A DNA stretch of 64,000 nt from a bacterium (GTDB lineage Bacteria > JADJOY01). The stretch lies in the NCBI GenBank assembly GCA_046331705.1, contig JAXLQJ010000006.1, forward strand, positions 1 through 64,000, written 5' to 3'. Position numbers and translations under genes: made by a program. Below are positions 2,984-32,768 of the stretch, one piece after another (position 1 is the stretch's first letter; every line of letters begins with the position of its first letter). Under the pieces are notes generated by a model, which saw only the letters and a program-made list of their open reading frames with translations, was not told the origin of the DNA and did no database searches.

Positions 2984-3042
2984 TCGGCGGCGCGATCCGC
3001 GACAGCGGCGTCGGCCATCCCGGCTCGCGCGGCGCGCGGCCT

Positions 3043-3748: not shown

Positions 3749-3764
3749 AGCAAGCGCCGTGCCT
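3749..3764 (-). promoter_or_regulatory. sigma54 -24/-12 promoter for the 3043-3654 gene
   Basis: Minus strand AGGCACG-GCGC-TTGCT matches TGGCACG-N4-TTGCW with exact spacing. Confidence 0.7.
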
Positions 3765-3776
3765 GCCGTCGAGGGA

Positions 3777-5423: not shown

Positions 5424-5436
5424 GAGTGATCATCGC

Positions 5437-5451
5437 TGCGCAAGTTGCGCA
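5437..5451. promoter_or_regulatory. Palindrome, candidate upstream activator site
   Basis: TGCGCAAGTTGCGCA, ~110 bp upstream of the sigma54 promoter at 5561. Confidence 0.4.
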
Positions 5452-5560
5452 TCCGTGCACAGTCGCCGCGCACCCGGAGCGCACGACGACTCCACCCGGA
5501 TCGCCGCGCGAATCCGCGCGCCGCGCGTCGATTGGATCGAGCGCCGGCCGGCTCGGCGCC

Positions 5561-5576
5561 TGGCCCGCGAGTTGCT
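5561..5576 (+). promoter_or_regulatory. sigma54 -24/-12 promoter for the FAD monooxygenase
   Basis: TGGCCCG-CGAG-TTGCT, ~70 bp upstream of ATG 5646 and divergent from the activator gene. Confidence 0.7.
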
Positions 5577-5645
5577 CCTCGGGACGCGACATCGCCGCCT
5601 CGTGCGCGTAGCGCAGGCGAGAGCGGCCACCGGGAGACGAGAGAC

Positions 5646-6878: not shown

Positions 6879-8383
6879 AGCAGGCGCACGTCGAGGGCGC
6901 TGCGCAGCTCGTCGGCCAACCGGTCGTAGACGTCGAGCGCGGGCGCCGATCCGGGTGCAGCGAGCCCCTTCCGGCGCGCCAGCTCCCGAAGCAAGCCGGC
7001 GCGGACGGCGTCGTTCTCGAGCAGTCCGTGCACCAACGTGCCGATGACGACGCCATCGCCGCTGATCGCTCCGTCGAGGGACCCGAGCGCCGAGCCGTTT
7101 CGCGTCTCCACCTCGAACGGCTGGCCCACCGTGCCGATCGGTTCCACCACTCCCATGTGAATCTCGTAACCGTCGATCGGATCCGTCGCGAGCCGGTCGA
7201 CGTCGGGTGTGAGCCAGCTCGCCACACGCGCGCGCACCCGAACCTGCGCGGTGATCTTGTCGCGCGCGAACGAGGTGCGGACCGGCAGCAGCCCGAGCCC
7301 GCGCATGTGCGGGTGATCCGATTCGATCCCCTCCGGATCCACGATCTCGTGCCCGAGCATCTGGAAACCGCCACAGATGCCGAGAATGGGCGCGCCGAGC
7401 GCCGCCCGCGCACGCAGCCGCGCCGCGAGCCCGCGGCTCTCGAGCCAACGCAGATCGGCCACCGTGCCCTTGGATCCAGGCAGCACCACCAGGTCGGCGC
7501 CCTCGAGCTCCGCCGCGCTCTCGACGTAGCGGACCGTCACCCCGGGTTCGCGCTCGAGCGGGCCGAGCTCGTCGAAGTTCGAGATCCGCGGCGTGCGGAT
7601 CACGACCACGTCGAGCTCATCGCGTCCTGCCCGCCGTCCGTTCCGCCGTTCCTCGAGCGCCACGGCGTCCTCGTCGGCCAGCCCCAGGTTCCGGACGTGT
7701 GGGACGACTCCGAGGACTGGCACTCCCGTGCGCTCCTTCAGCATGCGCAAGCCGGGCTCGAGTCGTGCGACCTCGCCGCGGAACTTGTTGATCACGAACC
7801 CGCGCACGCGCGCCCGCTCGTCGGCGTCGAGCAGCGCCAGCGTTCCGACGAATGCCGCGAACACGCCTCCTCGGTCGATGTCGCCCACCAGCAGCACGGG
7901 CGCGTCGGCGACGCGCGCCACGTGCATGTTCGCGAGGTCCCGATCCTTGAGATTGATCTCCGCCGGGCTGCCCGCGCCCTCGATCACGACCACCTCGTGG
8001 CGCTCGCGAAGCGTTCGCAACGAAGCGGCGATCACGGGCGCGAGCGTCGGGCGCAGGTCGTCGTAGCCACCACCACCGAGGCGCCCCACCGCTCGACCGC
8101 TCACCACGAGCTGGCATCGCCCCTCGCCCTCGGGCTTGAGCAGGATCGGATTCATCTCCACCGCTGGAGGCAATCCCGCGGCTGCGGCCTGAACGGCCTG
8201 CGACCGACCGATCTCGAGACCATCGGCGGTCACCGCCGCGTTGAGCGCCATGTTCTGGCTCTTGAACGGCGCCACCGACCAGCCGTCCTGACGCAGCAAT
8301 CGGCACAGCCCCGCGACCACGGTGCTCTTTCCCACCGCGGACGCGGTGCCTTGGACCATGATCGTCCGCGCCAGCGGCTTCAT
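6803..8383 (-). CDS. cobQ: Cobyric acid synthase
   Basis: MVQGTASAVGKS, PFKSQNMALN, MNPILLKP, IEGAGSPAEINL, DIDRGGVFA, GICGGFQMLG. Confidence 0.93.
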   Translation of the reverse strand: MKPLARTIMVQGTASAVGKSTVVAGLCRLLRQDGWSVAPFKSQNMALNAAVTADGLEIGRSQAVQAAAAGLPPAVEMNPILLKPEGEGRCQLVVSGRAVGRLGGGGYDDLRPTLAPVIAASLRTLRERHEVVVIEGAGSPAEINLKDRDLANMHVARVADAPVLLVGDIDRGGVFAAFVGTLALLDADERARVRGFVINKFRGEVARLEPGLRMLKERTGVPVLGVVPHVRNLGLADEDAVALEERRNGRRAGRDELDVVVIRTPRISNFDELGPLEREPGVTVRYVESAAELEGADLVVLPGSKGTVADLRWLESRGLAARLRARAALGAPILGICGGFQMLGHEIVDPEGIESDHPHMRGLGLLPVRTSFARDKITAQVRVRARVASWLTPDVDRLATDPIDGYEIHMGVVEPIGTVGQPFEVETRNGSALGSLDGAISGDGVVIGTLVHGLLENDAVRAGLLRELARRKGLAAPGSAPALDVYDRLADELRSALDVRLLYAIIGLDAPAAGRSPARFRNPASS

Positions 8384-16370: not shown

Positions 16371-18233
16371 TCATCGAGGGGTGGGGGGTGGAGAGCTTGC
16401 TCCTTCGACGCCGGCCAGCGGCAGGGTGAACCAGAACACGGCGCCGCCGTCGTCGTTGTCCTCGACGCCGATGCGGCCGCCGTGCGCTTCGACGATCTCC
16501 TTGGCGATCGAGAGGCCGAGACCGGAGCCGCCCGGCGGAGCGCCGGGTGCGCGAAAGAACCGGTCGAAGATCCGCTCGCGGAGATCGGCCGCCACACCGG
16601 GGCCGCGGTCGCGCACCTCGAACCGGACGTTGCCGTCCTCGAGGCGCGCGCCGAGCCGCACGGTCTCGCCGCTCGGCGTGAAGCGGATCGCGTTGGTGAT
16701 CAGGTTCGAGAGCACCAGCGCCATGCGGTCGCGGTCGGCCAGCACCTCGGGAAGGTCCACCACGACGTCGGCTTCGATCTCGACGCTGCGATGGCGGGCG
16801 TCGGCAAGGTGCGACTCGCGGGCTTCGTCGAGCAGCGAGGCGGCCCGCACGGCGTGCAGCGCCAGGTCCACCTTCCCCGACTGAAGCCGGGCCAGGTCGA
16901 GCAGGTCGTCGACGATGCGCTGGAGTCGCTCGCAATCGTCGCGGCCCGCGTGGAGCAGCTCGGCTTGCTTCGCGGTGATCGCGCCCGCCGCTCCCTCCAG
17001 GCAGAGGTGGATGGCCATGCGCAGCGACGTGAGCGGTGTCCGAAACTCGTGCGCCACCGTGGCCACCAGGTCGTTGCGAAGCTCGTCGAAGCGCCTGAGC
17101 CGGGTGACGTCCTGCAGAATCACGGTGACACCGGTGACACCGGCGCCGCCGTAGAGTGGGCTCGCCCGCGGCAGCAAGTAGGTGTCCACGCCGCCGGCGG
17201 GCAGGCGCACGGTCTCCTCGAAGCCGCGCGGCAGGTACGCGCCCCGTCCCGCGAGCACGTGCTCGACCACGCGCTCGATCGCGCTTCGCACCTCGGGCTC
17301 GGCGCGCACCAGCGGGCTCTCGCCGGCGGGCACGTGCCACGCGTCCAGCAGCTTCTCCGCCGCCTCGTTGAGGCTGGTCACGTTGCGCTGGGTATCGAAG
17401 ACCATCACCGCGTCCGGCAGGCTGTCGATCGCCGCTTGCGACGTCTCTTGGGCCTGGAGCAGGTCCCCGAGCGTGCTCTGCCGATACTGGGTCACGCGCT
17501 CGGCCATCTGATTGAACTCGCGTCCCAGCGCGCCGATCTCGTCCTCCGTTCGGATCACGGCGCGCACCTCGGTGTCGCCCTCGCCGAGGCGGCGGGCGGC
17601 ATTCGCGAGATCGTCGAGCGGGCGCAGCAACCGAGTGGTGAGGAACGACGAGGCGCCGAACCCGGCGAGCAGCGCGACCACCGAGACCAAGCTCATGAGC
17701 TGGTTCATGTGCGCGGCGCTCGCGAGCGCGGCATCGCTCTTGTGCAGCATCGCGTCCTGGTTGAGATCCAGGATCGCGTCGGCGTTTCGCTTCACCGCGT
17801 CGAACGCCGGCTCCAGGTCGGCGAAATAGCGCGCGGCCAGGTCGGGGCTGGTCGGCAGGGCGAAGAACGCGTCGAAGCGCTCGCGGTAGCGCGCCCACGA
17901 CTCGCGTAACCGCGCCGCGGCGTCGCGCTCGCCGGATTCGGTGATGTTGCGCTCCTCGACCAACAGCTCTTCGTCGAACCTCGGCCGATGCTTGGTGGCT
18001 TGCTCGATCGCCGCATCGCGGTGCCCGGCGACCACGAAGAGTGCCGCGCTGTCCATGCGCTCGATCGATTCCTTCATGCGCTGCGCCGCGAGCACGCTGC
18101 GGTAGTTGTCCGCCAGGATCGTCTGCGAGCTCTCGCCGAGCGCGGCCACCGTGTAGACGGAGATGCCGCCCACCGCGGCGAGCGCGATCCCCAGCGGGAT
18201 CTGCGCCAGGAGCAGCTTGGTGCGCAGGCTCAT
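16371..18233 (-). CDS. Membrane sensor histidine kinase (four-helix sensor, HAMP, PAS-like; KinB-like)
   Basis: ILADNYRSVLAAQRM, HAMP DEIGALGREFNQM, H-box VAHEFRTPLTS, NLITNAIRF, GSGLGLSIAKEIVEAHGG. Confidence 0.92.
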   Translation of the reverse strand: MSLRTKLLLAQIPLGIALAAVGGISVYTVAALGESSQTILADNYRSVLAAQRMKESIERMDSAALFVVAGHRDAAIEQATKHRPRFDEELLVEERNITESGERDAAARLRESWARYRERFDAFFALPTSPDLAARYFADLEPAFDAVKRNADAILDLNQDAMLHKSDAALASAAHMNQLMSLVSVVALLAGFGASSFLTTRLLRPLDDLANAARRLGEGDTEVRAVIRTEDEIGALGREFNQMAERVTQYRQSTLGDLLQAQETSQAAIDSLPDAVMVFDTQRNVTSLNEAAEKLLDAWHVPAGESPLVRAEPEVRSAIERVVEHVLAGRGAYLPRGFEETVRLPAGGVDTYLLPRASPLYGGAGVTGVTVILQDVTRLRRFDELRNDLVATVAHEFRTPLTSLRMAIHLCLEGAAGAITAKQAELLHAGRDDCERLQRIVDDLLDLARLQSGKVDLALHAVRAASLLDEARESHLADARHRSVEIEADVVVDLPEVLADRDRMALVLSNLITNAIRFTPSGETVRLGARLEDGNVRFEVRDRGPGVAADLRERIFDRFFRAPGAPPGGSGLGLSIAKEIVEAHGGRIGVEDNDDGGAVFWFTLPLAGVEGASSPPPTPR

Positions 18234-19387
18234 CGCTCGGCTCGATGTTCCTGAGAGGTCACGATGTGGAGGTCGAAGCCTTCCGATTCCTCGACCAGCC
18301 GGCGCACCACGTCACGACGCCGCATGCGGCTCAGCCACGAGGAGGACGGCCGCCCCACGACGATGTCGCTGACGGCGTGGGTGCGCGCGAAGTCGAGGAT
18401 CGCAGGAGCGGGGTCGTGCGCCTTGAGCTTCACCACCTCGGCGCCCAGCTCGCGCGCCAAGGCGATGGCGTCGTGAAGCTGCCGCTGTGCGGTCGCGTCG
18501 ATGTGCAGCGGGTCCTCCCCCGGGGTCTGGACGTACACCATGTACCAATCGGAGTTGAGCCTCCCGGCCATCCGCGAGCCGCGCCTGAGCAGCTCGCGGG
18601 CGCGCGGCGAGGCCGACGCGATGCACACCATCACGCGCGCGGCCCCCGGCCGCGGGCCCCCGCGCCCACCGTTGGGGCTGGCGGGCTGGGCGGCGCGCTC
18701 GACGCTCTCCGCCACCTCGCGCAGCACCAGCTCGCGCAGCGTGGCGAGATTCGAGTCCTTGAAGAAATGGCTCAGCGCCCAATCGATCTTCTCGCCGGCG
18801 TAGATCTTGCCCGCGCGCAGCCGCTCGAGGAGATCCTCCACGGCGAGGTCCACGGTGACCACCTGATCGGCGAGCTTGAGGAAGGTATCGGGGACGGTCT
18901 CGTGGATGGTGACGCCGGTGGCCCGCTCCACCAGATCGTTGAGCGACTCGAGGTGCTGGACGTTGAACGCACAGATCACGTTGATGCCGGCTTCCAGCAG
19001 CGCCTCGATGTCCTGGTGCCGGCGCAGGTGAGTGCTGCCGGGGACGTTGGTGTGCGCCACCTCGTCGACGATCGCCACCTGCGGCTGGCGCGCGAGGATC
19101 GCCTCGAGGTCCATCTCCTCGATGACCACGCCCCGATACTCGATTCGCCGGCGCGGCACGCATTCGAGGGAGCCGATCAGCGCCGCGGTCTCCGCGCGGC
19201 CGTGGGTTTCGACCAGTCCCACCACGACATCCACGCCGCGCTTCACGAGCGCGTGCGCCTCCTCGAGCATCCGATAGGTCTTGCCGACTCCCGCCGCGAA
19301 GCCCAGATAGACCTTGAGCCGGCCGCGCTTGGCGCGCTCGACCAGCTCGAGGAAGTCTTCGGGACGTTTGCGTTCGGTTGCGCTCAT
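18230..19387 (-). CDS. kdpD: Stand-alone KdpD N-terminal sensor domain plus Usp domain
   Basis: RGRLKVYLGFAAGVGKTYRML, VETHGRAET, EMDLEAIL, VDEVAHTN, NVQHLESLND; no kinase domain. Confidence 0.9.
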   Translation of the reverse strand: MSATERKRPEDFLELVERAKRGRLKVYLGFAAGVGKTYRMLEEAHALVKRGVDVVVGLVETHGRAETAALIGSLECVPRRRIEYRGVVIEEMDLEAILARQPQVAIVDEVAHTNVPGSTHLRRHQDIEALLEAGINVICAFNVQHLESLNDLVERATGVTIHETVPDTFLKLADQVVTVDLAVEDLLERLRAGKIYAGEKIDWALSHFFKDSNLATLRELVLREVAESVERAAQPASPNGGRGGPRPGAARVMVCIASASPRARELLRRGSRMAGRLNSDWYMVYVQTPGEDPLHIDATAQRQLHDAIALARELGAEVVKLKAHDPAPAILDFARTHAVSDIVVGRPSSSWLSRMRRRDVVRRLVEESEGFDLHIVTSQEHRAER

Positions 19388-19394
19388 GCCGGAT

Positions 19395-20000
19395 CTACTC
19401 GGGAGGTGGGCCGGCCGATGGTGCACCGAATTGACGGTCGAGGGCCAGGTTCACGCGCAGCACGTTCACCGTCGGCTCGCCCAGGAACCCGAGATCCCGC
19501 CCTTTGACGTGGGCGCGAAGCACGGCTTCGACGCGCTCTGCGGACACGCCGCGCGCCTTCGCGATGCGCGGCACCTGCCAGAACGCCGCCGCAGGCGAGA
19601 GGTGCGGATCGAGCCCGCTGGCGGAGGTGGTGACGAGCTCGGCGGGCACGGTGCGCGTCGCGTCCGGATTCGCCGCCAGCAGTCGCTCGACGTCGGCCGC
19701 CACCCGGTCACGAAGCTTTCGCGACGTGGGTCCGAGGTTCGAGCCGCCCGAGGCGGTCGCATCGTAGCCGCTCGCTCCCGCGGCCGAGGGGCGTGGCTGC
19801 AGGTAGCCCGGATTCGTGAAGGGCTGGCCGATCAGGCTCGAGCCCACCACCTCCCCGTCTTCCCGTTTCACCAGGCTCCCGTTCGCCTTGGCCGAGAAGA
19901 GCCCCTGTGCCACGGCGGTGATGGCCAAGGGATACAGAAGGCCCGTCAGCACGAGCGTGACGACGGTGGTCCGGATCGCAATCGAGAATTCGCGTTTCAC
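19395..20000 (-). CDS. kdpC: K+-transporting ATPase subunit C
   Basis: [58 protein letters not shown]. Confidence 0.95.
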
Positions 20001-20019
20001 GGTGTTCTCCCTGCCGGCC

Positions 20020-22071
20020 TCAAACGAGGCCGATCACGCTCAGCGCGACGTCGATGATCTTGATGCCGAGGAACGGTGCGAGCACGCCGCCCACGCCGTA
20101 GATCAGCAGCGAGCGGCGAAGCAGCGCCGCGGCCCCGATGGGCCGATACGTCACGCCGCGCAGCGCCAGCGGAATGAGCAGGATGATGATGATCGCGTTG
20201 AAGATCACCGCCGCGAGAATCGCGCTGAGCGGCGAGGTCAGGTGCATCACGTTGAGCGGCGCGATCTCCGGGAAGACGCCCATGAAGATGGCCGGCAGGA
20301 TCGCGAAGTACTTGGCGACGTCGTTGGCGATCGAGAACGTGGTGAGCGTGCCGCGGGTCATGAGCAGCTGCTTCCCGACCTCCACCACCTCCAGCAGCTT
20401 GGTGGGGTTCGAGTCGAGATCCACCATGTTGCCGGCCTCTTTCGCGGCCTGGGTGCCGGTATTCATCGCCACGCCCACGTCGGCCTGAGCGAGCGCGGGC
20501 GCGTCGTTGGTGCCGTCGCCGGTCATCGCCACGAGCTTGCCCTTGGCCTGCTCCTCGCGGATGAAGCGCATCTTCATCTCGGGTGTCGCCTCGGCCAGGA
20601 AGTCGTCGACCCCCGCCTCGGCGGCGATGGCACCCGCCGTGCGCGGGTTGTCGCCAGTGATCATCACGGTGCGGATGCCCATGGCGCGGAACCGCGCAAA
20701 GCGCTCCTTGATGCCTTCCTTCACGACGTCCTTGAGGTGGATCACACCCAGGATCTGCCGTCCGTCCGCCACGGCCAGCGGCGTGCCGCCCGACGAGCCG
20801 ATGCGGTCGGCGATGTCACGCAGCTCCTTCGGAACCGAGCCTCCTTGGGACTCGACCCATTGCGCAACCGCGTCCACGGCGCCTTTGCGGATCATGCGGC
20901 CGTCGAGGTCGCAGCCGCTCATGCGCGTCTGCGCGGTGAACGGGATGAAGTGGGCGCCGATGCCCTGGATGTTGCGGGCGCGAATCGCGAACTTCTCCTT
21001 GACCAGCACGACGATGGAGCGGCCCTCGGGAGTCTCGTCGGCGAGGCTCGCGAGCTGCGATGCGTCCGCCAGGTCCTCCGTCCGCACGCCCGCGACGGGG
21101 ATCAGCTCGTGCGCCATGCGGTTGCCGAGGGTGATGGTGCCGGTCTTGTCGAGCAGCAACGTGTCGACGTCGCCCGCCGCCTCCACCGCGCGCCCGCTCA
21201 TCGCGAGCACGTTCTTCTGCAGCAGCCGGTCCATGCCAGCGATGCCGATGGCCGAGACGAGCCCGCCGATGGTGGTGGGGATCAGACAGACCAAGAGCGC
21301 CACGATGACGGTCGTGGAAAGCGTGATTCCCGAGTAGAGGGCGAGCGGTACCAGCGTCACGCACGCGAACAGGAACACCAGCGTGAGCCCCACCAGCAAG
21401 ATGTGCAGCGCGATCTCGTTGGGTGTCTTCTGGCGCGCGGCGCCCTCGACCAATCCGATCATGCGATCCAGAAAGCTCTCGCCCGGGTTGGCGCCGATCC
21501 GCACCACGATCCGATCGGACAGCACCTTGGTGCCGCCCGTGACCGACGACCGGTCGCCGCCGCTCTCGCGGATCACGGGCGCCGACTCGCCGGTGATCGC
21601 CGACTCGTCCACCGACGCGATGCCCTCGATCACCTCACCGTCGCCGGGGATCAGCTCGCCCGCGTCGACGATCACCACGTCGCCCTTCTTGAGAGCGGAA
21701 GCCGGCACCGTCTCCTCGCGCCCCCCTACCTGGCGGCGCGCCGTGGTCTCCTTGCGCATGCGCCGCAGTGTCTGCGCTTGCGCCTTGCCGCGCCCCTCGG
21801 CGACGGCCTCCGCGAAGTTCGCGAACAACACCGTGAACCACAGCCAGAGGCAAACCGCTCCCGTGAACCATCGCGGCGCAGCGCCAGCGGGGGCCGCGAC
21901 CACGTCGCGGATCCACACCACGGCGGTGAGCACCGCGCCCACGCCCACCACGAACATCACCGGATTCTTGGCGAGCAGCCGAGGATCGAGCTTGACGAGG
22001 CTGGCCAGGGACGCCTGCCGCAAGATCGCGGGATCGAACAGCGACTGCGTCGACTTCTCGTGGCGACTCAT
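20020..22071 (-). CDS. kdpB: K+-transporting ATPase subunit B
   Basis: [59 protein letters not shown]. Confidence 0.97.
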
Positions 22072-22482
22072 GATCCGAACACCTTTCCGTTGCCGGCCAG
22101 GAAGTGCTCGACGACCGGGCCGAGGCAAAGCGCCGGGAAGAACGTCAACGCGCCCACGATCACGACCACGCTGACGAGCAGCACGACGAACGTGGTGCCG
22201 TTGGTCGGGAACGTTCCCGGACCCGCGACGACGGTCTTCTTGCCGACCATCGAGCCGGCGATGGCGAGCGCCGGCAGGATCATCCAGAAGCGGCCCGCGA
22301 GCATCGTGAGCCCGAGGGTCACGTTCCAGAAGCCGGTGTTCGCGTTGAGGCCGGCGAACGCGGAGCCGTTGTTTCCGGCGCCGCTCGAGTACGCGTAGAG
22401 GATCTCGCTCAGGCCGTGCGGCCCGGCGTTGTTGAGCGACGACACGCCGTAGGGCGCCACCGCCTTCAGCAGCGCGGTGCCC
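22068..22482 (-). CDS. kdpA: K+-transporting ATPase subunit A, C-terminal ~135 aa only (cut by the duplicate junction)
   Basis: [43 protein letters not shown]. Upstream sequence switches abruptly to the monooxygenase copy. Confidence 0.9.
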
Positions 22483-22489
22483 GGCTGGC

Positions 22490-23253
22490 GGCATCGGCCA
22501 GGCGGTGGTGGAAGGCGAAGGCGGAAGCTCCCGATCGCATCCACCCGCGCCGGCTTCGAGACCGGCCCGCTCGAGCAGTCGCTGCACGTCCTCGATGGCG
22601 AGGCGGGCGGCTCGTCCATCGTCGCCACGATGCGTGGTGCCCGCCGGGCTGGCGACGGCTCGAGGAGGAAGAAGGCGTCCTCGGAGAAGATCGAGCGGCC
22701 ATGCGCAGCCGGCCCTGGCGCACGAAGAACTGCTCGTAGCCTGCCGGTGAAGCCGATGCCCTGCGCGGCCGCGTACGCCGTCGGCACCGGCCAGCAGGCG
22801 CAGGTCGACGCGGATCCCCGCTCGCCGAGGCGCCACCATCACCGAGACGCCGTGGGCGTCCTGCAGCACGCCGCTCACCGCACGGGAATCCACTCACCCC
22901 AGCTCGCGCAAGCGGCGGGGAGCTCGACTCGGTGACCTGCTGGGGAATCTCAGCATTGCGGAGCTGAGTGGGCAACGTCGGGCTGGTCAGCCGCGCCCGG
23001 TCAGGAGCGGCGGCACGACGTGGCCGCGCGCGCCTGGCGTCACCCCCGGTTGCTCGAGGACTCCTCCAGCGTGCGGGCGTGCACCACGGCCGCGCGTGAT
23101 GTTAGCGCCCTCGGCGATGCGATCGATGAGCACGAACGGGATGCCCCGCGCGGCGGCGAGGACGCAACCGAGCGTGAGCCCGGTGGGTCCGGACCCCACG
23201 ATCAGCACGTCGGTTTCGCCAGGTAGCTCGCGGTTCGATCGAACGGTCTCCAT
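22490..23253 (-). pseudogene. Frameshifted partial copy of the FAD monooxygenase
   Basis: [25 protein letters not shown] is identical to the 5646 gene, followed by many indels. Confidence 0.8.
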
Positions 23254-23471
23254 GTCTCTCGTCTCCCGGTGGCCGCTCGCCTGCGCTACGCGCACGAGGC
23301 GGCGATGTCACGATCCCGAGGAACGCTCGCGGGCCAGGCGCCGAGCCAGGCCGGCGCTCGATCCAATCGACGCGCGGCGCGCGGATTCGCGCGGCGATCC
23401 GGGTGGAGTCGTCGTGCGCTCCGGGTGCGCGGCGACTGTGCACGGATGCGCTTGCGCAGCGATGATCACTC

Positions 23472-25100
23472 GTGCGCAGCTCGTCGCCGTCGCTCCGCTT
23501 GAGGCACCGGGCGCGTCGCGGCAAGAATCGCCGACGCGTGATCTCGAAGCCGGATTCCTCCGACACGGAGCTGCTCGAACGTCTGCTGGCGCTCGACGAG
23601 CTGTTGCCGACGTTGGCCGGCGTGCTCGACGTGCGGCAGGTGTTCGAGCGGTTGTCCACCCTCGCGCGAAGGGTGATCGCTCACGACATGCTGCTCATGA
23701 CGTTGCTCGCCGACGATCGGGGCCACGTCACGGTACGCGATCACCGGCGGCGAGGGGACGTTTCCGCCACGGTGATCGCGCTCACCGGGCAGAAGGTGCT
23801 CGCTCGCTCCCTCGTGGGAGGAGTCACGTGGTGGCGGACATGCAGGCCGAGCCCTCGGGGCGGAACTTGCCGCCGGGCCAGAGCGGATACCGGGCTCGGT
23901 TGATGGTTCCGCTGCGCCTGCGCGGCGAGCACTTGAGGGGCGCTGGACTTCTTCTCGCTGCGGACCGACGTGTACCGGGACGTCGACGTGCTGGTGGCGC
24001 GCCGCATCGCGGATCACGTGGCGCTGGCGTTGTCGCATCAGCAGTTGGCCGAGGAGGCGGAGCGGGCCGCCGCGGCGCGCGAGCGCGCGGCGGCGCTCGG
24101 TACGCGCTGACGGCGGAGGTCGATGCGCCGGGCACGGACGAATCGTCGGCGAATCCCCGGCGTGGAGGGCACGCGCTGAAGCAGGCCGCCCAGGTCGCCG
24201 TCACCGATACCACCGTCTTGTTGCTCGGCGAGTCCGGGACCGGAAAGGAAGTGTTGGCACGGCTCATCCACCGGGTTTCCGCTCGCGAGCAGGCACCCTT
24301 CGTGGCGGTGAACTGTGCCGCGCTTCCCGAGCAGCTCCTCGAGTCGGGGCTCTTCGGGCACGAGCGTGGTGCGTTCACCGGAGCCTGGCCGCGAAGCGGT
24401 CAGATCGAGCTGGCGGAATCCGGCGTGCTCTTCCTCGACGAGGTGAGCGAGATGAGGTCAAACGGCGCAAGCGAAGTTCTTGCGCGTGCTGCAGGAGCGT
24501 GAGTTCCAGCGTCTCGGTGGGACCCGCACGATCAAGTCCAACGTACGCATCATCGCGGCCACGAACCGGGATCTCTCGACGGCGATCGCGCGCGGAGGGC
24601 TTCCGCGAGGACCTCTACACCGGCTGAACGTCTTCGAGATCGCGCTGCCGCCGTTACCGCGATCCAGGCCGAGGACATCCTGCCGCTCAGCGACGCGTTC
24701 CTCCACGACATCGCCCGATCCGCTCGGCCGCGCGCCGGCTCGGCTTCTCCTGGGACGCGCGTCCGCTTCTGCTCGGGCACGACTGGCCGGGAAACGTGAG
24801 GCAGCTGCGGAACGTGCTGGAGCGCGCCGCCATCGTCTGCGAAGACGGGATCATCACGCGCGAGCAACTGTCGCTGCCGGCTCGGGTGGGAAGCTCGGCA
24901 CCATCGCCAGGCAACGAGACGGCAGCGAGCGAGACGCGGATGCTTCCGCCACGCCGATGGCGCTCGCGGCCCTCGAGCGCGCGGCGATCGAACGCGCGCT
25001 TGCCGAGGCGCGCTTCAACAAGTCGAAGGCCGCCCGCGCGCCAGGGCTCACCACGCCAGCTCTACGTGCGGCTGCGCGGATACGGCCTGGACCGCGTGAT
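23472..25100 (+). pseudogene. Frameshifted copy of the GAF-sigma54 activator
   Basis: Fragments [19 protein letters not shown] and [10 protein letters not shown] fall in different frames. Confidence 0.8.
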
Positions 25101-25216
25101 CCTCGACGGCAGGCACGGCGCTTGCTCTCGCAGCGCACGATCCGGCAGCAGGTGTTCCGATGCGTGTGCGCGGAAGCCCCCGCCTCGGCTGGGCGTGCTC
25201 GTGAGATCGAGGAAGC

Positions 25217-25815
25217 ATGCGACGAAGCGGCGGCGCTCGGCTCGTTCGTGCGATGGTCTGCGCCGTGGCGCTCGCGGCGCCAGCCGCGGCGTGGGCCGGA
25301 AGAATCGGGCTCGGGCTCCGTCGGACGACCCCTCGCGGTGGGGGTGCAGCTCGATCTCTTTCCGACGATCGTCAGCGCCGCGAATGGCAAGCTCGGACAC
25401 GCCGCAGATCTGGATCGGCATCAGTGCCTGCGATTGCGGCTGATCGGCGCCCATCTGGAGCCGCCCGATGCGTTCGCCTTCGACGACGACTTCGAGACCC
25501 GACGTCCACCGTGCTCGCCGCGGTGGTCGACTACACCTTCGGCGAGCGATTCGACCCGGGTGGTGGCTGGCTGAGTGGCGGCTTCGGTGTGGGAGCGCAC
25601 GGTGCGGCACGAAGGCTCGCGCGACGAGCTCGCTTGGACATCATCGAGCGATCGGCGATCGAGATTTACATCTTCGCGGGTGACTTCGTCAGTCCGTGGC
25701 TCGGCGTGCACGCGACGCTGAACCCCGAGACCATCGAGGGCGCAGGCTTCGAATACGAGCCGCCCGCCGTCGTGGCGAACGCGTCGTCAAGATCGGCTGG
25801 TTCTCGGCCTGGTGA
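25217..25815 (+). pseudogene. Frameshifted copy of the 3043-3654 barrel gene
   Basis: MRRSGGARLVRAMVC ... PWLGVHATLNPETIEG, with internal indels. Confidence 0.75.
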
Positions 25816-25870
25816 AGGCCGCGCGCCGCGCGAGCCGGGATGGCCGACGCCGCTGTCGCGGCGCCGCCGA

Positions 25871-26198
25871 TCAGCCGCCGCAGATCACCGGGCACAGCGC
25901 GCGCGGGGACCTCGATCCGCCGGTCCGGAGCGCGTCCCTCCGGCAAGTGGACGCGCAGCGTGGTGGGATGCTCTCCCAGGTTCGCGCACGAGGAACAGCC
26001 AGCGCTGTCCACGCACAGCCAGTCGTCCGGTGTCTCGAACGCCGCTCAACCTTCGGTCATCCGTCCGTCGGCGTCGAGGGGCAGGTAGTCGGCCGCCAGC
26101 GCCCCGAGCTCAGTGCGGCTGGGGCCACCGACTTGGCGCAGCCACAGGCGGAGAAGCATCGCGATGGCGGCGATGGGCGGAAGCGTGCGTCGGCTCAT
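25871..26198 (-). pseudogene. Frameshifted copy of the 2645-2983 lipoprotein
   Basis: DSAGCSSCANLGEHPTT fragment. Confidence 0.65.
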
Positions 26199-26363
26199 GG
26201 TTGCAGGGTCTCCTCCAGCGGATCGCGCTGCAGGTCAGGCTGGGGCGCGACTGTCGCATGCTGTGCCGCTGCGCTGGAGCGCGTCACGAGGTCGCATCGC
26301 GCAGTTGACTGCATGGACGGCGACGCGCGGCGTGGCGATGTTGTCCTCGTCATGAAGGGCGGC

Positions 26364-26803
26364 ATGCGTTCGACGGTGGCGTTCGTGATCTGCCTCGCGG
26401 CGTTCTCGCTGGGCGCGTCCACGCCTGGTACGGACGTGGATCGCGAGGCGTATCGTGTCGCCCACGATCTGATGAGCCCGTTTTACCCGGGCCACCCTCG
26501 CCGATTGCCCCAGCCCGTACGCGCGCGAGGTGCGTCGGGAGGATTCGGGAGTCGCTCGCGAGCGGCATGACGGCGAGCAATTGACGGCCCGCGTCACCAG
26601 GCTCGGCGACGGGTGCGCGGGCGGCCGCGCAACAGCTGGGGCTGGGCCATTCCCGCGCTCGTCACGCTCGGCGGCCTCGTCGTCGCCTTCGCGGTCATCC
26701 GCCGCCTCGCGCTGCAGCCGGTGCGACGCGCGAACGAGGAAGTCGCCCTCTTCGCCGAGCGCCGCTCGCGAGGCTCGACGGCGAGCTGCGCGCGCTCTCG
26801 TGA
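26364..26803 (+). pseudogene. Frameshifted copy of the ccmH-like gene
   Basis: MRSTVAFVICL..LMSPF and WGWAIPALV are in different frames. Confidence 0.7.
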
Positions 26804-26815
26804 TCGACGCCCGCG

Positions 26816-27950
26816 TCAGGGCAGCGGAGCGGCGAAAACGTCGGATCGCTGACGAGCTCGGGGTCGGTGAGGGATTCGAGGAAAGCGATCAAGTCCGCCT
26901 TCTCGCTCGGCGCCGAAGCCGCGCAGTGAGTCTTGGGCAGGCTGCGCGCGCCATCGCCCGCGAGCTGGCCCAGGTGATGACCGCCCCGCCGCGGGCGTAG
27001 TGGTCGACGACCTCGGCCAGCGTGGCGATCGAGCCGTCGTGCATGTAGGGCGCGGTGACGGCCACGTTGCGCAGGCTGGGCGGACGAAATCGGCCCATGT
27101 CGGCGAGGTCGGTGGTGACCGCGTAGATCGGGATTGTCCGGCAGGTACGCGCCGTGACCATCGAGGTTGTAGAGCCCGTTGTTCTCGAACTTGGGCGGAT
27201 CGTCGATCTTGCCTTCGCGATGGATGGCGCCCGAGAAGTCGAGGCCGCCGTGGCAGTGGTCGCATTCGAGGCGACCGGCGAGAAGAGATCCATGCCGCCG
27301 AGGCGAATCCGAAGGTGCCGCGGGCTCGCCACCGTAGACCGCGCGGTCGTAGGGCGAACGTCCCGTGACGACGGTGCGCTGGAACGCGCCGAGCGCGCGG
27401 GTGAGGGTGGCGATGCTCACGGGCTCGTCGGCGTGATCGGGAAACGCGGCCTGGAAGCGGGCCGGGGTGTCCGCGTCGTTCTCGAGCCGCGCGACCAGCT
27501 CGTCCTCGCCGCCCACGAACCCGAGCTCCACCGGACGCTCGCCGAACATCGGCACCAGCGCCTGGTGCTCGAAGGTCGTGAGCAGCGGGTTCGCCCAGGT
27601 GAGCGCCGGCCGATAGGCGGCGTTGGCGATCGACGGAGAGTTGCGCGGATGCGTCTCGCCGGTGAGCCCACCGAATTGACCATCGGTGAACAGCTCTCGC
27701 CGGCGGAACCGCAAGACTGCGTGCCGTTCCGCGACAGGCGCGTGTCGAGGAGCCTCCGCCCCGAGCTCCACCTTGGCATCGGTCATCGGGTTGTCGTCCG
27801 GGACGACGGGGTCGGGAACCCGGGCGGAGGCTGCCAGTCGTAGGATGTGGTGGAGGGTGCGACGAGGTGGCGTTTCCGCACGCCACCCCGGCGCAAAAAC
27901 GCACCCGGCCGGCAGGAGCACTCGTCCAGTCCCGCGCATTGCAGCTCGTC
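26816..27950 (-). pseudogene. mbnH: Frameshifted copy of mbnH
   Basis: RNSPSIANAAY, ECDHCHG and [19 protein letters not shown] are spread across frames. Confidence 0.8.
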
Positions 27951-28817
27951 GTTCCACCGAGAACACGTCCTGCTCGCCACCCGGCTGATCGCCGAACGGC
28001 AAGCCGAGGTGAGCGAGGGTAGGCGAGCACTCCAGGTCGCCCGGGAACGACATGCAACCCGGCGCCGTCTCCGGCGTGTTCACGTCGACGTCGCTGTCCG
28101 ACAGAGCAGCGACGTCGAGGACCACGACGTTCCGCCCGGATCGAAGCCGTTGGCGAGCGGGATCTCCGCGTCGACGCGGTTCGGCTCGCTACGCGCTCAC
28201 GTTGCCCGCGCCGTCGCCCTCGCAGCCGGTGCTGCCCAAGTGGAGGAAGAAGCCGTCGACCTGGCCGGTGGTCGCGAGCTCGACCTTGATGAACTTGTAG
28301 CCGAAGTTCCAGCTCCAGAAGAGCGGTGTCTCGTCGGCGGTGCGGGGGCGGTGGTGGCGTCGCCGTGGTTGAGCGCGAACGGCACGCCCACGGTGAAGTG
28401 GATCCGCGCCGCGTGGCCGGACTCGACCGTGCCTCGGATCGGCGTGTTGGTCGCCGCGGTGCCCTCGGCGGCGCAGCGTCCGGTGCCGTCCTCGAAGTCG
28501 AGAAGGGCCACGTCGTCGAGCTGCCACTCGCCATCCTGCTCGAGCGTCACGAAGCGCTCGCTCTCGTCGTCGTTCACGAAATGGATGTCCGAGACGTAGA
28601 ACCGACCGTCCATGGGCTCGCCGGTCGAGGACGTCGTGCCGAGACCTTCGTAGCGCTGGCCGCAGGCGAACGGCTCATCGCCCACACGCGCCTCGAATTG
28701 GATCTCGATCGGCTGTGGGCCGGAGACCGTCTTGTCGTCGCTGCCACAACCGGCTGCGACCAGCCCCAGCGTCACCGAGCCCAACATCCAGAACCTCCCG
28801 CGAAACGCGTTCGTCAT
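27951..28817 (-). pseudogene. mbnP: Copy of mbnP including the true start codon; frameshifted in the 3' half
   Basis: MTNAFRGRFWMLGSVTLGLVAAGC..., nearly identical to positions 1-450, then a frameshift near 28340. Confidence 0.8.
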
Positions 28818-28892
28818 CTCTCTTCCCCTCGGCATGTGGTTGGGTTTCCCGCGTATTGGGCCGAAGCTAGCGAGGGTGACGCGGTGCTGAAA

Positions 28893-28908
28893 TGCGACAA
28901 ATCGTCGC
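28893..28908. promoter_or_regulatory. RegA/RegR-type palindrome between divergent mbnP and csp
   Basis: TGCGAC-AAATC-GTCGC. Confidence 0.7.
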
Positions 28909-29014
28909 GGCGCCAGCGGCGGGAGTGAGAATCGGTGGCGACCCGTGTCGCGGCGTGCTTGGATGCTCGTCGTGCAGGCTCACCACCAACCCGATTCCGT
29001 GGGAGGAACGACCG

Positions 29015-29428
29015 ATGACGATGGAGCGACGCGAGATGATTCTCGCCACAGCGGGGGTATTGGCCGCTGGTCTGGTGACCCCGACCACCGCGGCGGAGGC
29101 GCCGCCGGCGTTCGCGGAGGTCGCGGGACGCTGCGTGGTCGTGGGGAACGAATGCCTACAGCACTGCCTCGACCTGCTCGCGAAAGGCGACACGGCGATC
29201 GCCGATTGCGCCCGTGAAGTACGTCAGATGCTGGCGATCTGCGCCGCCGCGGGGCCGATGGCCGCAGCGAAGGGTAAGCGCCTCGCAGCGTTCGCGAAGC
29301 TCTGCGCCGACGTGTGCGGCGACTGCGAGAGCGCCTGCCGTAAGCACGAGGCCGATCACGAGATCTGCAAGCGCTGCGCGGAAGCGTGCGCCGCAGTCGT
29401 CGCCGAAGCCCGCAAGCTCGCGGCGTGA
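29015..29428 (+). CDS. Tat-exported copper storage protein (Csp1/2-like Cys-lined four-helix bundle)
   Basis: RBS GGAGG; twin-Arg signal MERREMILA; 12 Cys in CxxxC/CxxC repeats (CLQHC, CADVCGDCESAC, CKRCAEAC); KHEADH. Confidence 0.9.
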   Translation: MTMERREMILATAGVLAAGLVTPTTAAEAPPAFAEVAGRCVVVGNECLQHCLDLLAKGDTAIADCAREVRQMLAICAAAGPMAAAKGKRLAAFAKLCADVCGDCESACRKHEADHEICKRCAEACAAVVAEARKLAA

Positions 29429-29462
29429 GGCCCCGCGGCCTGGGGCCGTGTGCCGTCCGCGC

Positions 29463-30950
29463 TCAGCGCTCGCCAGCGCGGATGCGACGTCCCGTGGCCA
29501 GGCTCACCAGCATCGCCAACGTCCCCGCGACCAGGATCGTCGTGCCGGCGGCCGAGAGCACGTGCAGGATCTGGAGCTCGCCGGCGTAGGCGTTGGCGCG
29601 GAACGGCTGGCCCGCGAACCCGGTGACGAAGAGCGGCAAGAACGTCGTGTAGAGGCCGGCCACGACCAACCCTGCGGCGATGCGTCCCCAGCCGTCGGCA
29701 ACCTCGCGTCTCGCCAGTCGCGGCCACACGCGGTGCAAACCCGCGAGGAACGCGAGCAGCGGCGCGGCGAAGACCATCCAGTGGAGATGGGTGGTCGCGA
29801 GCACGGTGCGCGACGCCATCACCCGCGTGGCGGGCATGGCCATCAACAAGCTGGTGGCGAGCCCGAGCGCGAGCGTGGGCAGAAATGCGATCGCGTAGAT
29901 TCCCGCGGCGTCGAGCGCAGGAGGCTGCCGCCAGAGGCGTCGCAGCTGACCCGCCAGCAGCGCGGTCACGCTCGCGAACGCCAGCGCGCTCACCACGGCT
30001 TCCATCGCGATGCTGCCCGGGCCGGCCGCTGGAGCGGACGTGGGGCCGAGCCACGCGAAGAGCCCCGTGAAGGCGAGCAGCCACAGGGCCACGGTCGAGC
30101 GCAGCCCGCTCGATTCGTCGCTACGCGCGGCGAGCACGCTCGAGACCGCGCCCAGCGAGCCGAGCAGCAGGATGCTCTGGAGCGCCGACACCGCGATCCG
30201 GAAGCCCTGCGTGAAGAGCTCGGGGTCGCCGCCGGCGCTCGCGTCGAAGAGGCTGAGCCCGAGGGCGGCGTCCAGGAGGACCACGCTGACGCAGCTCGCG
30301 AGGATCGCGCACGCGACCAGACCGCTGAGGGCGACGAGCAGAAAAGCCGTCGCCAGGTCCGGTGTGGCCTGCGCGCGCGCGGTGGTTCGCCGCCAGTGCA
30401 GGATGGTCGCGGTCTGGCTCGTGCACAGCACCGAGATCCCCAGGATGCCGACGAGCACGCCGATGGCCGCGGTGCGAACGCCGGGCGCGGCGAATTGCCA
30501 ACCGAGCTCGCCGTCGAACAGCCAGCCGGCCTCGGTCCCGCCGCCGACGAACCCCGCCAGCACGATCGCTCCGCCGGCGGCCAGCAGCTGCCACGACGCG
30601 CGCGCCAGCCGCGGGAACACGACGCGCTCGAGCCCGAGCGCGTCGAGCAGCAGCGACTGGCCGAGGATCGCCGGGAAGAGCGGCACCATGACGAAGTAGA
30701 TCCCGAGGGTGCCGTGAAGCGAGAGCAACGCGCCGAAGGTGCGCGCCTCGAACGCATCGAGCGGCGGCGTCAGCCATTCGCGCTGGATGGCCGCGGCCGC
30801 TAGCCCTCCCGCGAGACCGAACAACAATGTCAGGAGCAGCTGGCGGCGCGCGAGGCGCTGCGGCGCCGTCGTGAGGAGCGAGTCGAGCATCTCCTCGTGG
30901 GTCGACCGCTCGCGGTCGAGCGCGGTGTCCAGCGTGTGGGTGAGGTTCAT
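29463..30950 (-). CDS. Divergent heme-copper oxidase subunit I (COX1-fold) paralog lacking the CuB ligands
   Basis: Collinear with Cox1: LHGTLGIYF..VFPRL, AGW, SLFDASAGGDP, THLHW, TFLP..GFAGQPFR. The HPEVY and WAHH motifs are absent. Confidence 0.8.
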   Translation of the reverse strand: MNLTHTLDTALDRERSTHEEMLDSLLTTAPQRLARRQLLLTLLFGLAGGLAAAAIQREWLTPPLDAFEARTFGALLSLHGTLGIYFVMVPLFPAILGQSLLLDALGLERVVFPRLARASWQLLAAGGAIVLAGFVGGGTEAGWLFDGELGWQFAAPGVRTAAIGVLVGILGISVLCTSQTATILHWRRTTARAQATPDLATAFLLVALSGLVACAILASCVSVVLLDAALGLSLFDASAGGDPELFTQGFRIAVSALQSILLLGSLGAVSSVLAARSDESSGLRSTVALWLLAFTGLFAWLGPTSAPAAGPGSIAMEAVVSALAFASVTALLAGQLRRLWRQPPALDAAGIYAIAFLPTLALGLATSLLMAMPATRVMASRTVLATTHLHWMVFAAPLLAFLAGLHRVWPRLARREVADGWGRIAAGLVVAGLYTTFLPLFVTGFAGQPFRANAYAGELQILHVLSAAGTTILVAGTLAMLVSLATGRRIRAGER

Positions 30951-31101: not shown

Positions 31102-32382
31102 ATGGGAACCCTCCGCGTCGTCGTCTGCCTCGCGCTGCTCACCGGATGCCGCGAGTCGGCTACGCCCCAGTCGGCTACGCCGGCGCCCTACGAGATCTCG
31201 CTGCGGCCGCCGGAGGGCGGGCTCTTCGCCGGGGAGGAGATGCCGATCGAGTTTCGGCTCACCGCACGTTCGCCAGACGCGGCCGCGGGCTCGACTGCGG
31301 TTCGCTACGCACGCGTCGAGTGCACTATCGACATGCCGAGCATGCCCGGGATGCCGGCTTTCACCGAGCTCGCGCACGCGGAGGGCGTGGCGGGGGAATA
31401 CGGCGTCCATCCCACGTTCGCCCACGGTGGGGATTACCGCTTGCGCATCCGCGTGCTGCCTCCTTCCGAGCAGCCATCCACGATGACACCGCGTCCGACC
31501 GCCGGCTACGAGGCCGAGATCGCGCTCGCTGTCGCGGACGCGCCGCCGCCCGGCCGCCCCCGGGGTTCCGCGGCAGCGGCCCGCTACAAGGTCAGCGTCG
31601 AGCCGGCGACGACGCCACCGCGCGCAGGCGAGCCGAACGAGCTACGGGTGGTCTTCTGGAAGAACGTGCAGCGTCAGGAAACGCAGCCGGATGGCGGCGT
31701 CCGTGTGGTGGGAGGCGGTGAGCCCATCACCGAGTTCGATCCGAGCCACGAGCGGCTCTTGCACCTGTTCGTGATGCGCGACGATCTCGGCACCTTCGCC
31801 CACGAGCACCCGCGACTGGGCGACGGCGGCACCTTCACGCTGCCGTTCACGTTCCCCACCGGCGGCGCCTACGTCGTGTTCGCGGACGCGGCTCCCCGCG
31901 GCGCAGGCTCGCAGGTCGTGGCGACCCGCCTCTGGGTCGAGGGAGCGACCGCGCCGCGCTTCGACCTCGCGGCGGCGTACCGCGGCGATCGGGGCCTCAG
32001 CCAGACTCGCGGGGACGTCACGCTGGATTGGACGTTGCCCGGGGACCCGCTGCCCGCGGGCAAGACCGTGCGGCTGCGCGCGCGAGTCACGGATCGCGGT
32101 GGCCGGCCGATCGAAGACCTCGAACCGTATCTGGGTGCTTACGGCCATCTGATGATGGTGAGTGAAGGCGGCGGTGCCTTCGTCCACGCCCATCCCGACG
32201 AGACGCGGGGCGGTCCCGTGGACGGGGTCGTGGAGTTCCTCGCGCGGATGCCGGAACCGGGCCTCTATCGCGGGTGGGCGCAGATTCAGCGCGCCGGTGA
32301 GGTGCTGACCTTCGATTTCGTCGTGCGCGCTGGCGGCGACAGGCCAGGAACGACCCAGAACGCGACCCCGGTGGTGCGATGA
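31102..32382 (+). CDS. Lipoprotein with a YtkA-like domain and duplicated His-rich putative metal-binding Ig-like domains
   Basis: Lipobox LLTGC; DMPSMPGMP..GEYGV..F.HGGDY; HERLLHLFVMRDDL..FAHEHP and YLGAYGHLMMV..FVHAHP. Confidence 0.75.
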   Translation: MGTLRVVVCLALLTGCRESATPQSATPAPYEISLRPPEGGLFAGEEMPIEFRLTARSPDAAAGSTAVRYARVECTIDMPSMPGMPAFTELAHAEGVAGEYGVHPTFAHGGDYRLRIRVLPPSEQPSTMTPRPTAGYEAEIALAVADAPPPGRPRGSAAAARYKVSVEPATTPPRAGEPNELRVVFWKNVQRQETQPDGGVRVVGGGEPITEFDPSHERLLHLFVMRDDLGTFAHEHPRLGDGGTFTLPFTFPTGGAYVVFADAAPRGAGSQVVATRLWVEGATAPRFDLAAAYRGDRGLSQTRGDVTLDWTLPGDPLPAGKTVRLRARVTDRGGRPIEDLEPYLGAYGHLMMVSEGGGAFVHAHPDETRGGPVDGVVEFLARMPEPGLYRGWAQIQRAGEVLTFDFVVRAGGDRPGTTQNATPVVR

Positions 32383-32768
32383 CAGTCGTTGCACGCCGTC
32401 GCGGCGGCTTGGAACGTGCGCGCGGCCGCCGCTCCGTCGTGGGCCTCGACGGCATCGCGTAGCGCGGCGAGCGGGCCTTCGAGGAACGCGCGGCGCAGCG
32501 GCTCGAGGTCCATGCCGTAAAGCGGGCGTGGCGGGGTGGCGAGCGCCAGGTCGCGCTCGAAGAGCTCGGCGATCTGGCGCACCTGATACCGCGCCAGGTC
32601 GTCGTTCTTGGCCGTGAGGGCCGTTGCCAGGCTCGCGAATCGCGTACCGATCTCGGCCATCACCGCCGCGAAGCGTGGCGGAACGCCATGGGCGCGAGCA
32701 GGAACGGGTTGCAGAACGAGCACGGCCGCGCTGATCACCAGCGCGAATCGACGGCGATGCGGTTGCAT
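32286..32768 (-). CDS. Cytochrome c'-like (class II) monoheme protein
   Basis: Signal peptide ending ARA, helical body, C-terminal CNDCH. Confidence 0.7.
   Translation of the reverse strand: MQPHRRRFALVISAAVLVLQPVPARAHGVPPRFAAVMAEIGTRFASLATALTAKNDDLARYQVRQIAELFERDLALATPPRPLYGMDLEPLRRAFLEGPLAALRDAVEAHDGAAAARTFQAAATACNDCHRTTGVAFWVVPGLSPPARTTKSKVSTSPAR

Follow-up and report, generated by a model that had tools for sequence, protein, structure and literature searches.

A branch of cytochrome oxidase subunit I-like membrane proteins that probably keeps only the low-spin haem site, with links to copper handling

The window analysed here is a stretch of 64,000 nucleotides from a bacterium of the JADJOY01 lineage (GenBank assembly GCA_046331705.1, contig JAXLQJ010000006.1, positions 1 to 64,000, forward strand). 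It carries a gene whose product, P0001, resembles subunit I of cytochrome c oxidase (COX1) and is hereafter called the COX1-like protein; genes for copper-handling proteins lie around it. The gene and the codons that correspond to cofactor and channel positions of true oxidases are as follows.

29463..30950, minus strand: COX1-like coding sequence (P0001), 495 amino acids, ATG start, reading frame without a stop
30714..30716, minus strand: codon of His79, first low-spin haem ligand (equivalent of bovine H61), in the LHG motif at 30711-30719; invariant in alignments A1 and A2
30174..30188, minus strand: codons 255-259, SALQS for canonical HPEVY; first CuB His, D-channel Glu and cross-link Tyr replaced
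30042..30047, minus strand: codons 302-303, GP for canonical HH; second and third CuB ligands replaced
29787..29789, minus strand: codon of His388, position of the high-spin haem ligand (bovine H376); His here, variable across the family
29781..29783, minus strand: codon of His390, second low-spin haem ligand (equivalent of bovine H378), in the HLH motif at 29781-29789
29598..29600, minus strand: codon of Arg451, second Arg of the canonical RR pair, preceded by Phe450

The guanine-cytosine (GC) content at third codon positions of the COX1-like frame is 0.91, a value that it shares with those genes of the window (70% GC) that are clearly coding. The match to Pfam COX1 (PF00115) spans residues 33-471, which align with positions 2-435 of the 436-position model at E 4.1e-44 and 151.6 bits (cut-off 34.8). 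This full-length match, together with three alignments, bears out an earlier sequence-only reading, made from the letters of the window, which had described an intact 495-residue open reading frame (ORF) collinear with Cox1. The score against the CtaD/CoxA equivalog model TIGR02891 is 173.9 bits, below its cut-off of 670.75, and the genome carries five other COX1-family genes, each scoring above the COX1-like gene. No match to COX2 or COX3 is present within the 64-kb window, in agreement with the statement that no gene for subunit II or III is adjacent. The nearest COX2-like (CuA-type) match on the contig is found at 110136-110315, inside a 721-residue open frame about 80 kb from the COX1-like gene.

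The ligand positions were mapped in three ways, namely by residue-level alignment to solved subunit I chains, by alignment with canonical relatives and by hmmalign of about 140 relatives with a profile built from alignment A1, and the three mappings are concordant. The equivalents of bovine H61, H376 and H378, which had been proposed to be kept in this protein, are His79, His388 and His390 in every one of them. The motif FGHPEVY is replaced by AVSALQS, WAHH by WLGP and PRR by PFR, which places S255, G302 and P303 at the three CuB histidine positions and S259 at that of the cross-link tyrosine. The Asp and Asn positions of the D-channel are occupied by R109 and A116 (GLERVVFPRLARASW), both variable in the family, and the position of the gating Glu by L257. 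All of the substitutions proposed for the CuB site, the D-channel and the PRR motif were recovered, and realignment yielded no equivalent of a CuB histidine.

The propionates of the high-spin haem of aa3 oxidases are bound by two elements, the first Arg of the RR pair and an HD motif that precedes helix 10, whereas the low-spin haem propionates are bound by the second Arg. The COX1-like protein has SR in place of this HD, at positions that differ between family members. Its GxxxGW and GGDP loops are retained, as are the Gly and Trp motifs of the haem pocket. The alignments show loss of the CuB site and of the channels in the COX1-like family, the channel residues compared being the D-channel Asp, Asn and Glu. 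With these sites gone, the COX1-like protein can serve neither as an oxidase nor as a nitric oxide reductase. The predicted model of the protein displays the 12-helix fold of subunit I (predicted local distance difference test score, pLDDT, 86.8; predicted template modelling score, pTM, 0.90), and a Foldseek search with it matched chain 8d4t_N (TM 0.88, E 9e-19) as well as other aa3 and bo3 chains.

A word-indexed search recovered 15 close relatives with 38-100% identity, and an exhaustive search of 1.84 billion representatives gave 36 with E <= 1e-30. The family comprises about 30 clusters at 50% identity, and every recovered locus comes from a metagenome or a metagenome-assembled genome (MAG). 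The gene is present in all four other genomes of the genus, two of which hold a second paralogue. In a FastTree phylogeny of 111 relatives, the 27 rows bearing the ligand pattern all fall in one clade with a support of 99. The absence of any histidine at the CuB positions of a clade member was part of the criterion by which pattern rows were chosen. Because the group had been defined by its ligand pattern, the tree was rebuilt without the ligand columns (57 rows); 30 of the 31 pattern rows again form one clade (Shimodaira-Hasegawa approximate likelihood-ratio test, SH-aLRT, 100) that contains only pattern rows, the outlier being P0128, which sits on a long branch. The clade spans identities down to 36% with the motifs retained.

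The closest outgroups, of the HTYQH pattern, retain both haem histidines, the RR pair, the Tyr and one CuB His. In this sister lineage the first CuB His position is T, the cross-link position is Y, and the second and third CuB positions are Q and H, a pattern that suggests a stepwise loss of the active site. Among the 111 rows, 13 hold the full canonical ligand set, 52 hold part of it and 19 others are without CuB histidines; the first low-spin His is almost universally retained. Degenerate active sites are seen in most of the nearest COX1-family representatives (P0027, P0031, P0033, P0034, P0039 and many others).

Within the clade of 30 members, His79, His390 and Arg451 are each kept in all 30. 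Position 388, that of the high-spin haem ligand, is His in 8, Gln in 15 and one of S, R, I, A, T, C or W in the remaining 7, and His388 of P0001 and of its closest relative P0003 is nested in the tree among Gln-bearing sequences. None of the 30 has an Arg at position 450, the first of the RR pair; Phe stands there in 24, Tyr in 4 and His in 2. Regional conservation was computed as mean column values, with the helix limits taken from the model and the known topology of subunit I. The periplasmic loops average 0.64 against 0.40 for the cytoplasmic loops, and the best-conserved regions are loop P6 (0.79), helix 2 (0.74) and loop P2 (0.73). Among helices and periplasmic loops the lowest values belong to helix 8 (0.38), loop P4 (0.41) and helix 7 (0.45), the region of the former CuB site and K-channel. 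The invariant low-spin ligands, the variable position 388, the lost first Arg and the weakly conserved helices 7-8 together suggest a single conserved cofactor site, that of a bis-His low-spin haem. The distribution of conservation also points to the periplasmic side as the functional surface. It is highly probable that the family is functional, has no binuclear centre and conserves the low-spin site alone.

The selection on the gene has been estimated by the ratio of nonsynonymous to synonymous substitution rates (dN/dS) according to Nei-Gojobori. The six closest COX1-like pairs give 0.105, 0.16, 0.23, 0.26, 0.27 and 0.28. More distant pairs give 0.63-0.78, at which synonymous sites are saturated. 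Neighbouring genes of the same genome pair lie at 0.21-0.29, and the canonical COX1 genes of the same genomes at 0.02-0.075. The range of 0.10-0.28, close to that of the neighbours, indicates purifying selection as on an ordinary gene, much looser than on a true oxidase. The frames are open in all 7 places of the family in 5 genomes and in all 6 further metagenome matches. The argument of the sequence-only reading against random decay is upheld by these values and by the homologues found with the same loss of the CuB ligands. A decaying pseudogene was rejected as a candidate on the open frames, the dN/dS of 0.10-0.28 and the monophyletic clade with invariant motifs.

The accuracy of the sequence is supported by independent assemblies. 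Two contigs from public runs, covering 28779-30638 and 29288-30462, differ from the window at 4 letters and 1 letter, respectively, with no gaps, and a 2.8-kb contig from a third run spans the whole COX1-like gene with 33 differences and no gaps. A protein identical to the COX1-like protein is encoded on a separate metagenome contig (L035). Read-level error, named earlier as a possible source of the substitutions, is excluded by these gap-free contigs and the identical protein. The stretch is contained in 20 public runs from 13 studies, the organism being recurrent in activated-sludge and wastewater metagenomes; none of the public runs listed as containing it holds RNA data.

The sequence on the 3' side of the COX1-like gene is of another quality, as evident from the following features.

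22924..28792: error-laden inverted copy of window positions 1-6000; 94.2% identity, 107 indel events, 127 mismatches
28197..28835, minus strand: mbnP as written in the window; reads frameshifted, PF20243 over model positions 2-103 of 189 only
26695..28125, minus strand: mbnH (MauG-like di-haem enzyme, CCP_MauG match) as written in the window; reads frameshifted
9-848 and 887-1999, plus strand: clean mbnP and clean mbnH; TIGR04052 at 280 bits and TIGR04039 at 474 bits, above the cut-offs
3777-5429 and 23096-25574: GAF/sigma-54 activator, clean copy and noisy copy, respectively

The noisy stretch stops at 28792, about 670 bp from the COX1-like stop codon. Between 27100 and 28340, nine indels relative to the window are common to three to four independent runs, and all nine lie within 4 nt of indels that separate the two copies. 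One independent contig with the clean version continues into the COX1-like gene. As independent contigs carry the clean version beside the COX1-like gene, the frameshifts of mbnP and mbnH are noise of this assembly. The clean mbnP and mbnH are both 86% identical to the cluster copies of the relative L032 and reveal the true products of the genes beside Csp1. They are followed, 3' of mbnH, by a CcmH-like ORF, the GAF/sigma-54 activator and an FAD-binding oxidoreductase. Genuine pseudogenization of mbnP, mbnH, the sigma-54 activator and the FAD-binding gene was considered for the fragments and dropped, the stretch being a noisy copy of positions 1-6000 that is clean in independent contigs. The CcmH-like ORF (2027-2533, minus strand; PF03918, E 2e-15), directly after the clean mbnH, is of the cytochrome c maturation type.

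Three further genes make up the immediate surroundings of the COX1-like gene.

28892..29428, plus strand: Csp1-family four-helix-bundle copper storage protein; TIGR04401 at 103.6 bits (cut-off 100); runs convergently to the COX1-like gene
31102..32382, plus strand: YtkA/CtaK-domain lipoprotein of 426 residues with lipobox LLTGC; PF13115, E 3e-9; separated by a 151-bp spacer from the divergently oriented COX1-like gene
32286..32768, minus strand: cytochrome c'-like exported ORF of 160 residues with CNDCH near the C-terminus; weak PF01322 match, E 0.0016, 19.8 bits where the cut-off is 26.5

The translation of the Csp1 gene is Cys-rich and has its likely start at Met42 (position 29015), just 5' of a twin-arginine motif (MTMERREMIL), both features being read from the translation. 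The matches to TIGR04401, PF20243, CCP_MauG and PF13115 corroborate the identification of the neighbours as Csp, MbnPH and a YtkA-like lipoprotein. Orthologues of the Csp1, YtkA-like and cytochrome c'-like genes occur in L024, L025 and L032, where the YtkA-like gene adjoins the COX1-like gene and the cytochrome c'-like gene adjoins the YtkA-like gene. The order cytochrome c'-like, YtkA-like, COX1-like, Csp1, MbnP and MbnH is that of the genus and is seen in the window, L025 and L032, with MbnH lying beyond the contig end in L025; in L024 only parts of Csp1 and MbnH were found, and MbnP was not found. Sigma-54 promoter-like sites in the window occur at chance level (20 found, 18.3 expected), and inspection of the 151-bp spacer by eye gave no good site.

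The YtkA-domain lipoproteins form a widespread family of about 400 residues (253 hits), of which the Pfam model covers only the first 90. The Met and His motifs invariant in alignment A3 (DMPxMPxM, AHxEG...HPxFxHGG, FxHEHP and FVHxHPD) resemble several copper sites. Farther off, an upstream P-type ATPase had been taken for a copper pump; this assignment fails, since the gene is kdpB, accompanied by kdpC and a KdpD-like sensor. The run of kdpB, kdpC, a KdpD-like non-kinase sensor and a separate histidine kinase (16371-22893, minus strand) lies between the two copies of the duplicated segment and is unrelated to copper.

The proposal of a conserved copper neighbourhood holds within the genus and fails in other lineages, where the neighbours are different. 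At locus L038, CutC lies divergently upstream and a response regulator downstream. At L039, only 4 bp separate the COX1-like stop codon from the start of a di-haem cytochrome c; c-type cytochromes appear in two of the seven context types. The family stands apart from oxidase operons in all loci examined. A C-terminal HMA domain is present in the four longest members (P0014, P0015, P0028 and P0030) and in the ORF of L041; a test of P0014, P0015, P0028 and the L041 ORF showed it, behind an extra hydrophobic segment, in 4 of 4, and P0030 belongs to a different subclade from the other three. The HMA domain of P0014 and P0015 is preceded by an extra hydrophobic, lipobox-like segment. The C-terminus of subunit I faces inward. 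Given that orientation and the extra hydrophobic segment, the copper-binding HMA domain should be periplasmic.

Upstream of the HMA-fused form are three conserved ORFs, which encode a small protein with an HPCSMCK motif, a Met-rich exported protein and a prepilin-like DUF1559/N_methyl protein. The run occupies 7510-9923 in L029 and 7012-8975 in L030, both Verrucomicrobiota MAGs, and 5982-7979 in the metagenome contig L041. A conserved polytopic membrane protein of about 500 residues without a family match is encoded 3' of the universal stress protein gene, and like it downstream of the COX1-like gene, at 12057-13544 in L027 and at 11976-13520 in L028, the latter a Deltaproteobacteria record. 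Pfam and NCBIfam gave no family for this membrane protein (496 and 515 residues in L027 and L028, respectively), for the 266- and 283-residue ORFs of L029, the 137- and 290-residue ORFs of L041, the 690-residue ORF of L036 or the 209-residue ORF of L040.

These observations can be accommodated if the COX1-like protein is a working member of a small A-type branch of subunit I that has lost the haem a3/CuB centre and the proton channels. It would retain the 12-helix scaffold and, close to the periplasmic side, the bis-His low-spin haem site formed by His79, His390 and Arg451. Because the conserved parts are those that take the donor electron into the low-spin haem in oxidases, the protein may act as a membrane-anchored single-haem cytochrome that exchanges electrons with soluble or lipid-anchored partners across its conserved periplasmic face. 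Copper-handling proteins would be the partners in the genus and among the HMA-fused members, namely the YtkA/CtaK-like lipoprotein, the HMA domain, Csp1 and MbnP, and the likely role would be to determine whether periplasmic copper is present as Cu(II) or Cu(I). A c-type cytochrome would take the place of these partners in other lineages. From this pattern we infer haem binding, the flow of electrons, their origin (quinol or cytochrome c) and copper as a substrate. Of the roles put forward by the sequence-only reading (haem chaperone or store, sensor, electron conduit), the conduit would agree best with the conservation of the periplasmic side and with partners such as c-type cytochromes and HMA domains. 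The full statement, with electron transfer that is periplasmic and linked to copper, is offered tentatively, with doubt slightly outweighing belief.

Several observations weigh against this proposal. Haem binding by the family is a prediction from the conserved ligands. With one haem, placed near one face, the protein could not pass electrons from one side of the membrane to the other, so that the proposal does not account for the electron source, and the residues that bind quinol in cytochrome bo3 seem not to be conserved here. The family alignment reveals no conserved Met, Cys or extra His motif on the COX1-like protein able to hold copper, and the dN/dS of the gene exceeds the canonical COX1 value by a factor of 3-6. 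In the window, the COX1-like gene shares no operon with its neighbours, the YtkA-like gene being divergent and Csp1 convergent. The YtkA-like family, with its 253 hits, is far more widespread than the COX1-like family and so does not need the COX1-like protein. Copper links appear in only about three of the seven context types. The context is a nitroreductase in L027, L028, L036 and L037, with a universal stress protein also downstream in L027 and L028, a B12/radical-SAM gene beside the second paralogue of the genus (L031) and a transglutaminase-like gene in L040.

A narrower form of the copper-linked proposal is a periplasm-facing copper redox enzyme, in which the low-spin haem, located where it takes electrons from the CuA domain in oxidases, would reduce Cu(II) to Cu(I) on a docked or fused HMA or YtkA/CtaK-like domain and thereby load Csp1. 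If true, this would be a reversal of the ancestral step from CuA to haem, but we consider it unlikely. The sequence-only reading had favoured a copper-free di-haem protein, from the argument that exactly the haem histidines are kept; an open high-spin haem could then serve O2 or NO sensing or peroxidase-like chemistry. The high-spin position is His in P0001 and seven other members of the 30, its commonest alternative, Gln, is at least polar, and the sisters just outside the clade (P0027, P0033 and P0034) retain both haem histidines, RR and Tyr. The argument finds no support in the family comparison: position 388 is Gln in half of the members and another residue in 7, the His of P0001 and P0003 is nested among Gln-bearing relatives, the first Arg is kept in none of the 30, the HD motif reads SR and varies, and conservation is weakest in helices 7-8 and loop P4. 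What stands of the earlier claim is a copper-free membrane protein that is maintained; its di-haem part is distinctly improbable. A non-redox scaffold or assembly factor, that is, a docking platform or decoy subunit I for copper chaperones or haem in which the haem is only structural, would suit a genome with five other COX1-family genes. It would suit, too, a neighbour of the YtkA/CtaK type, as YtkA (= CtaK) is described as a lipoprotein required for CuA assembly in Bacillus subtilis (PMC9145763). On the other hand, both low-spin ligands and the propionate Arg are strict where the rest of the active site has drifted, which suggests that the cofactor matters; the family stays away from oxidase operons, and the di-haem cytochrome c of L039 is translationally adjacent. 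The scaffold is thus a doubtful explanation, to be kept as a minor one.

A haem-based sensor, whose bis-His haem would inform the sigma-54 activator or other regulators of redox, gas or copper status, draws on the GAF/sigma-54 activator in the cluster, the response regulator of L038 and the universal stress proteins of L027 and L028. It has no output domain and no conserved surface toward the cytoplasm, its cytoplasmic loops being the least conserved of the loops (0.40), the sigma-54 sites are at chance (20 against 18.3 expected) and the regulators differ among loci, so that a sensor has little to recommend it. HMA domains typically serve metal transporters, and their fusion in at least two subclades, with the copper neighbourhood recurrent in the genus, would fit a copper channel or transporter in which the emptied cavity conducts copper, the two invariant histidines are copper ligands and HMA or YtkA hands over the metal. 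The membrane helices, however, hold no conserved Met, Cys or further His, those lining the former centre are the least conserved, and the propionate-binding Arg and the Gly and Trp motifs kept in the pocket fit haem; this role is very improbable. As for a decaying pseudogene or a sequencing artefact, the dN/dS several-fold above that of canonical COX1 and the indel-rich stretch about 670 bp away could be cited in its favour. It is hardly credible when frames are open at every locus examined, dN/dS is 0.10-0.28, the motifs persist down to 36% identity, the independent contigs are gap-free and the noise ends at 28792.

If the single-haem cytochrome reading is correct, the subunit I scaffold would be reusable as a plain membrane cytochrome, and its low-spin half could function alone, although haem-copper oxidases are defined by their haem-copper centre. 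One relative bears the source name 'cbb3-type cytochrome c oxidase subunit I'. Since databases label the family as cytochrome c oxidase subunits, aerobic-respiration inferences drawn from such matches would be wrong. To our knowledge, few players are known in the management of the copper redox state outside the cytoplasm, and the recurrent links to Csp1, MbnPH, CtaK-like proteins and HMA fusions may offer a lead on it.

No paper on a subunit I family without a binuclear centre, or on MbnPH or Csp beside such a gene, was found in open-access PMC or bioRxiv, and the supplements of PMC11214002 may list such sequences. The COX1-like branch is apparently undescribed and rare. Related precedents are eNOR, bNOR, sNOR, gNOR, nNOR and NOD, which Murali et al. 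(2024, PMC11214002) describe as haem-copper oxidoreductase (HCO) families with altered active sites. They belong to the same superfamily as the COX1-like protein, have lost the cross-link Tyr, have changed their chemistry and were found mostly in metagenomes. According to that paper, no HCO family before gNOR was seen to substitute even a single active-site His, the histidines being fully conserved elsewhere, and these families are related to the B and C families, whereas the COX1-like family is nearest to the A family by sequence matches. The nitric oxide reductases among the HCO families are described there as needing a high-spin haem and a non-haem metal site with at least two or three His and, in addition, Glu or Asp, whereas the COX1-like protein has no His at the three metal-ligand positions. 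With all three CuB histidines replaced and the high-spin ligand not conserved, binuclear catalysis is impossible.

The closest known system is the A-family subunit I (CtaD/CoxA/Cox1; bovine 1occ_A, Rhodobacter sphaeroides 1m56_A and Mycobacterium smegmatis 6hwh), with which the COX1-like protein is collinear over its full length and shares twelve helices, its best sequence matches being of the aa3 type. The two share both low-spin histidines as well as the latter Arg of the RR pair; the COX1-like protein differs in having no CuB His, cross-link Tyr, D-channel Asp, Asn or Glu, or first Arg, and its high-spin His is not conserved in the family. For the proposed role the known counterparts have unrelated folds: the eukaryotic haem-b metalloreductases Fre/STEAP/Dcytb and the bacterial cupric reductase CcoG use two haems or Fe-S clusters with a defined donor, where the COX1-like protein has a single haem site. 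The likeness to these membrane proteins is one of functional analogy only, in that they pass electrons to Cu(II) or Fe(III) and so let Cu(I)-specific proteins take the metal.

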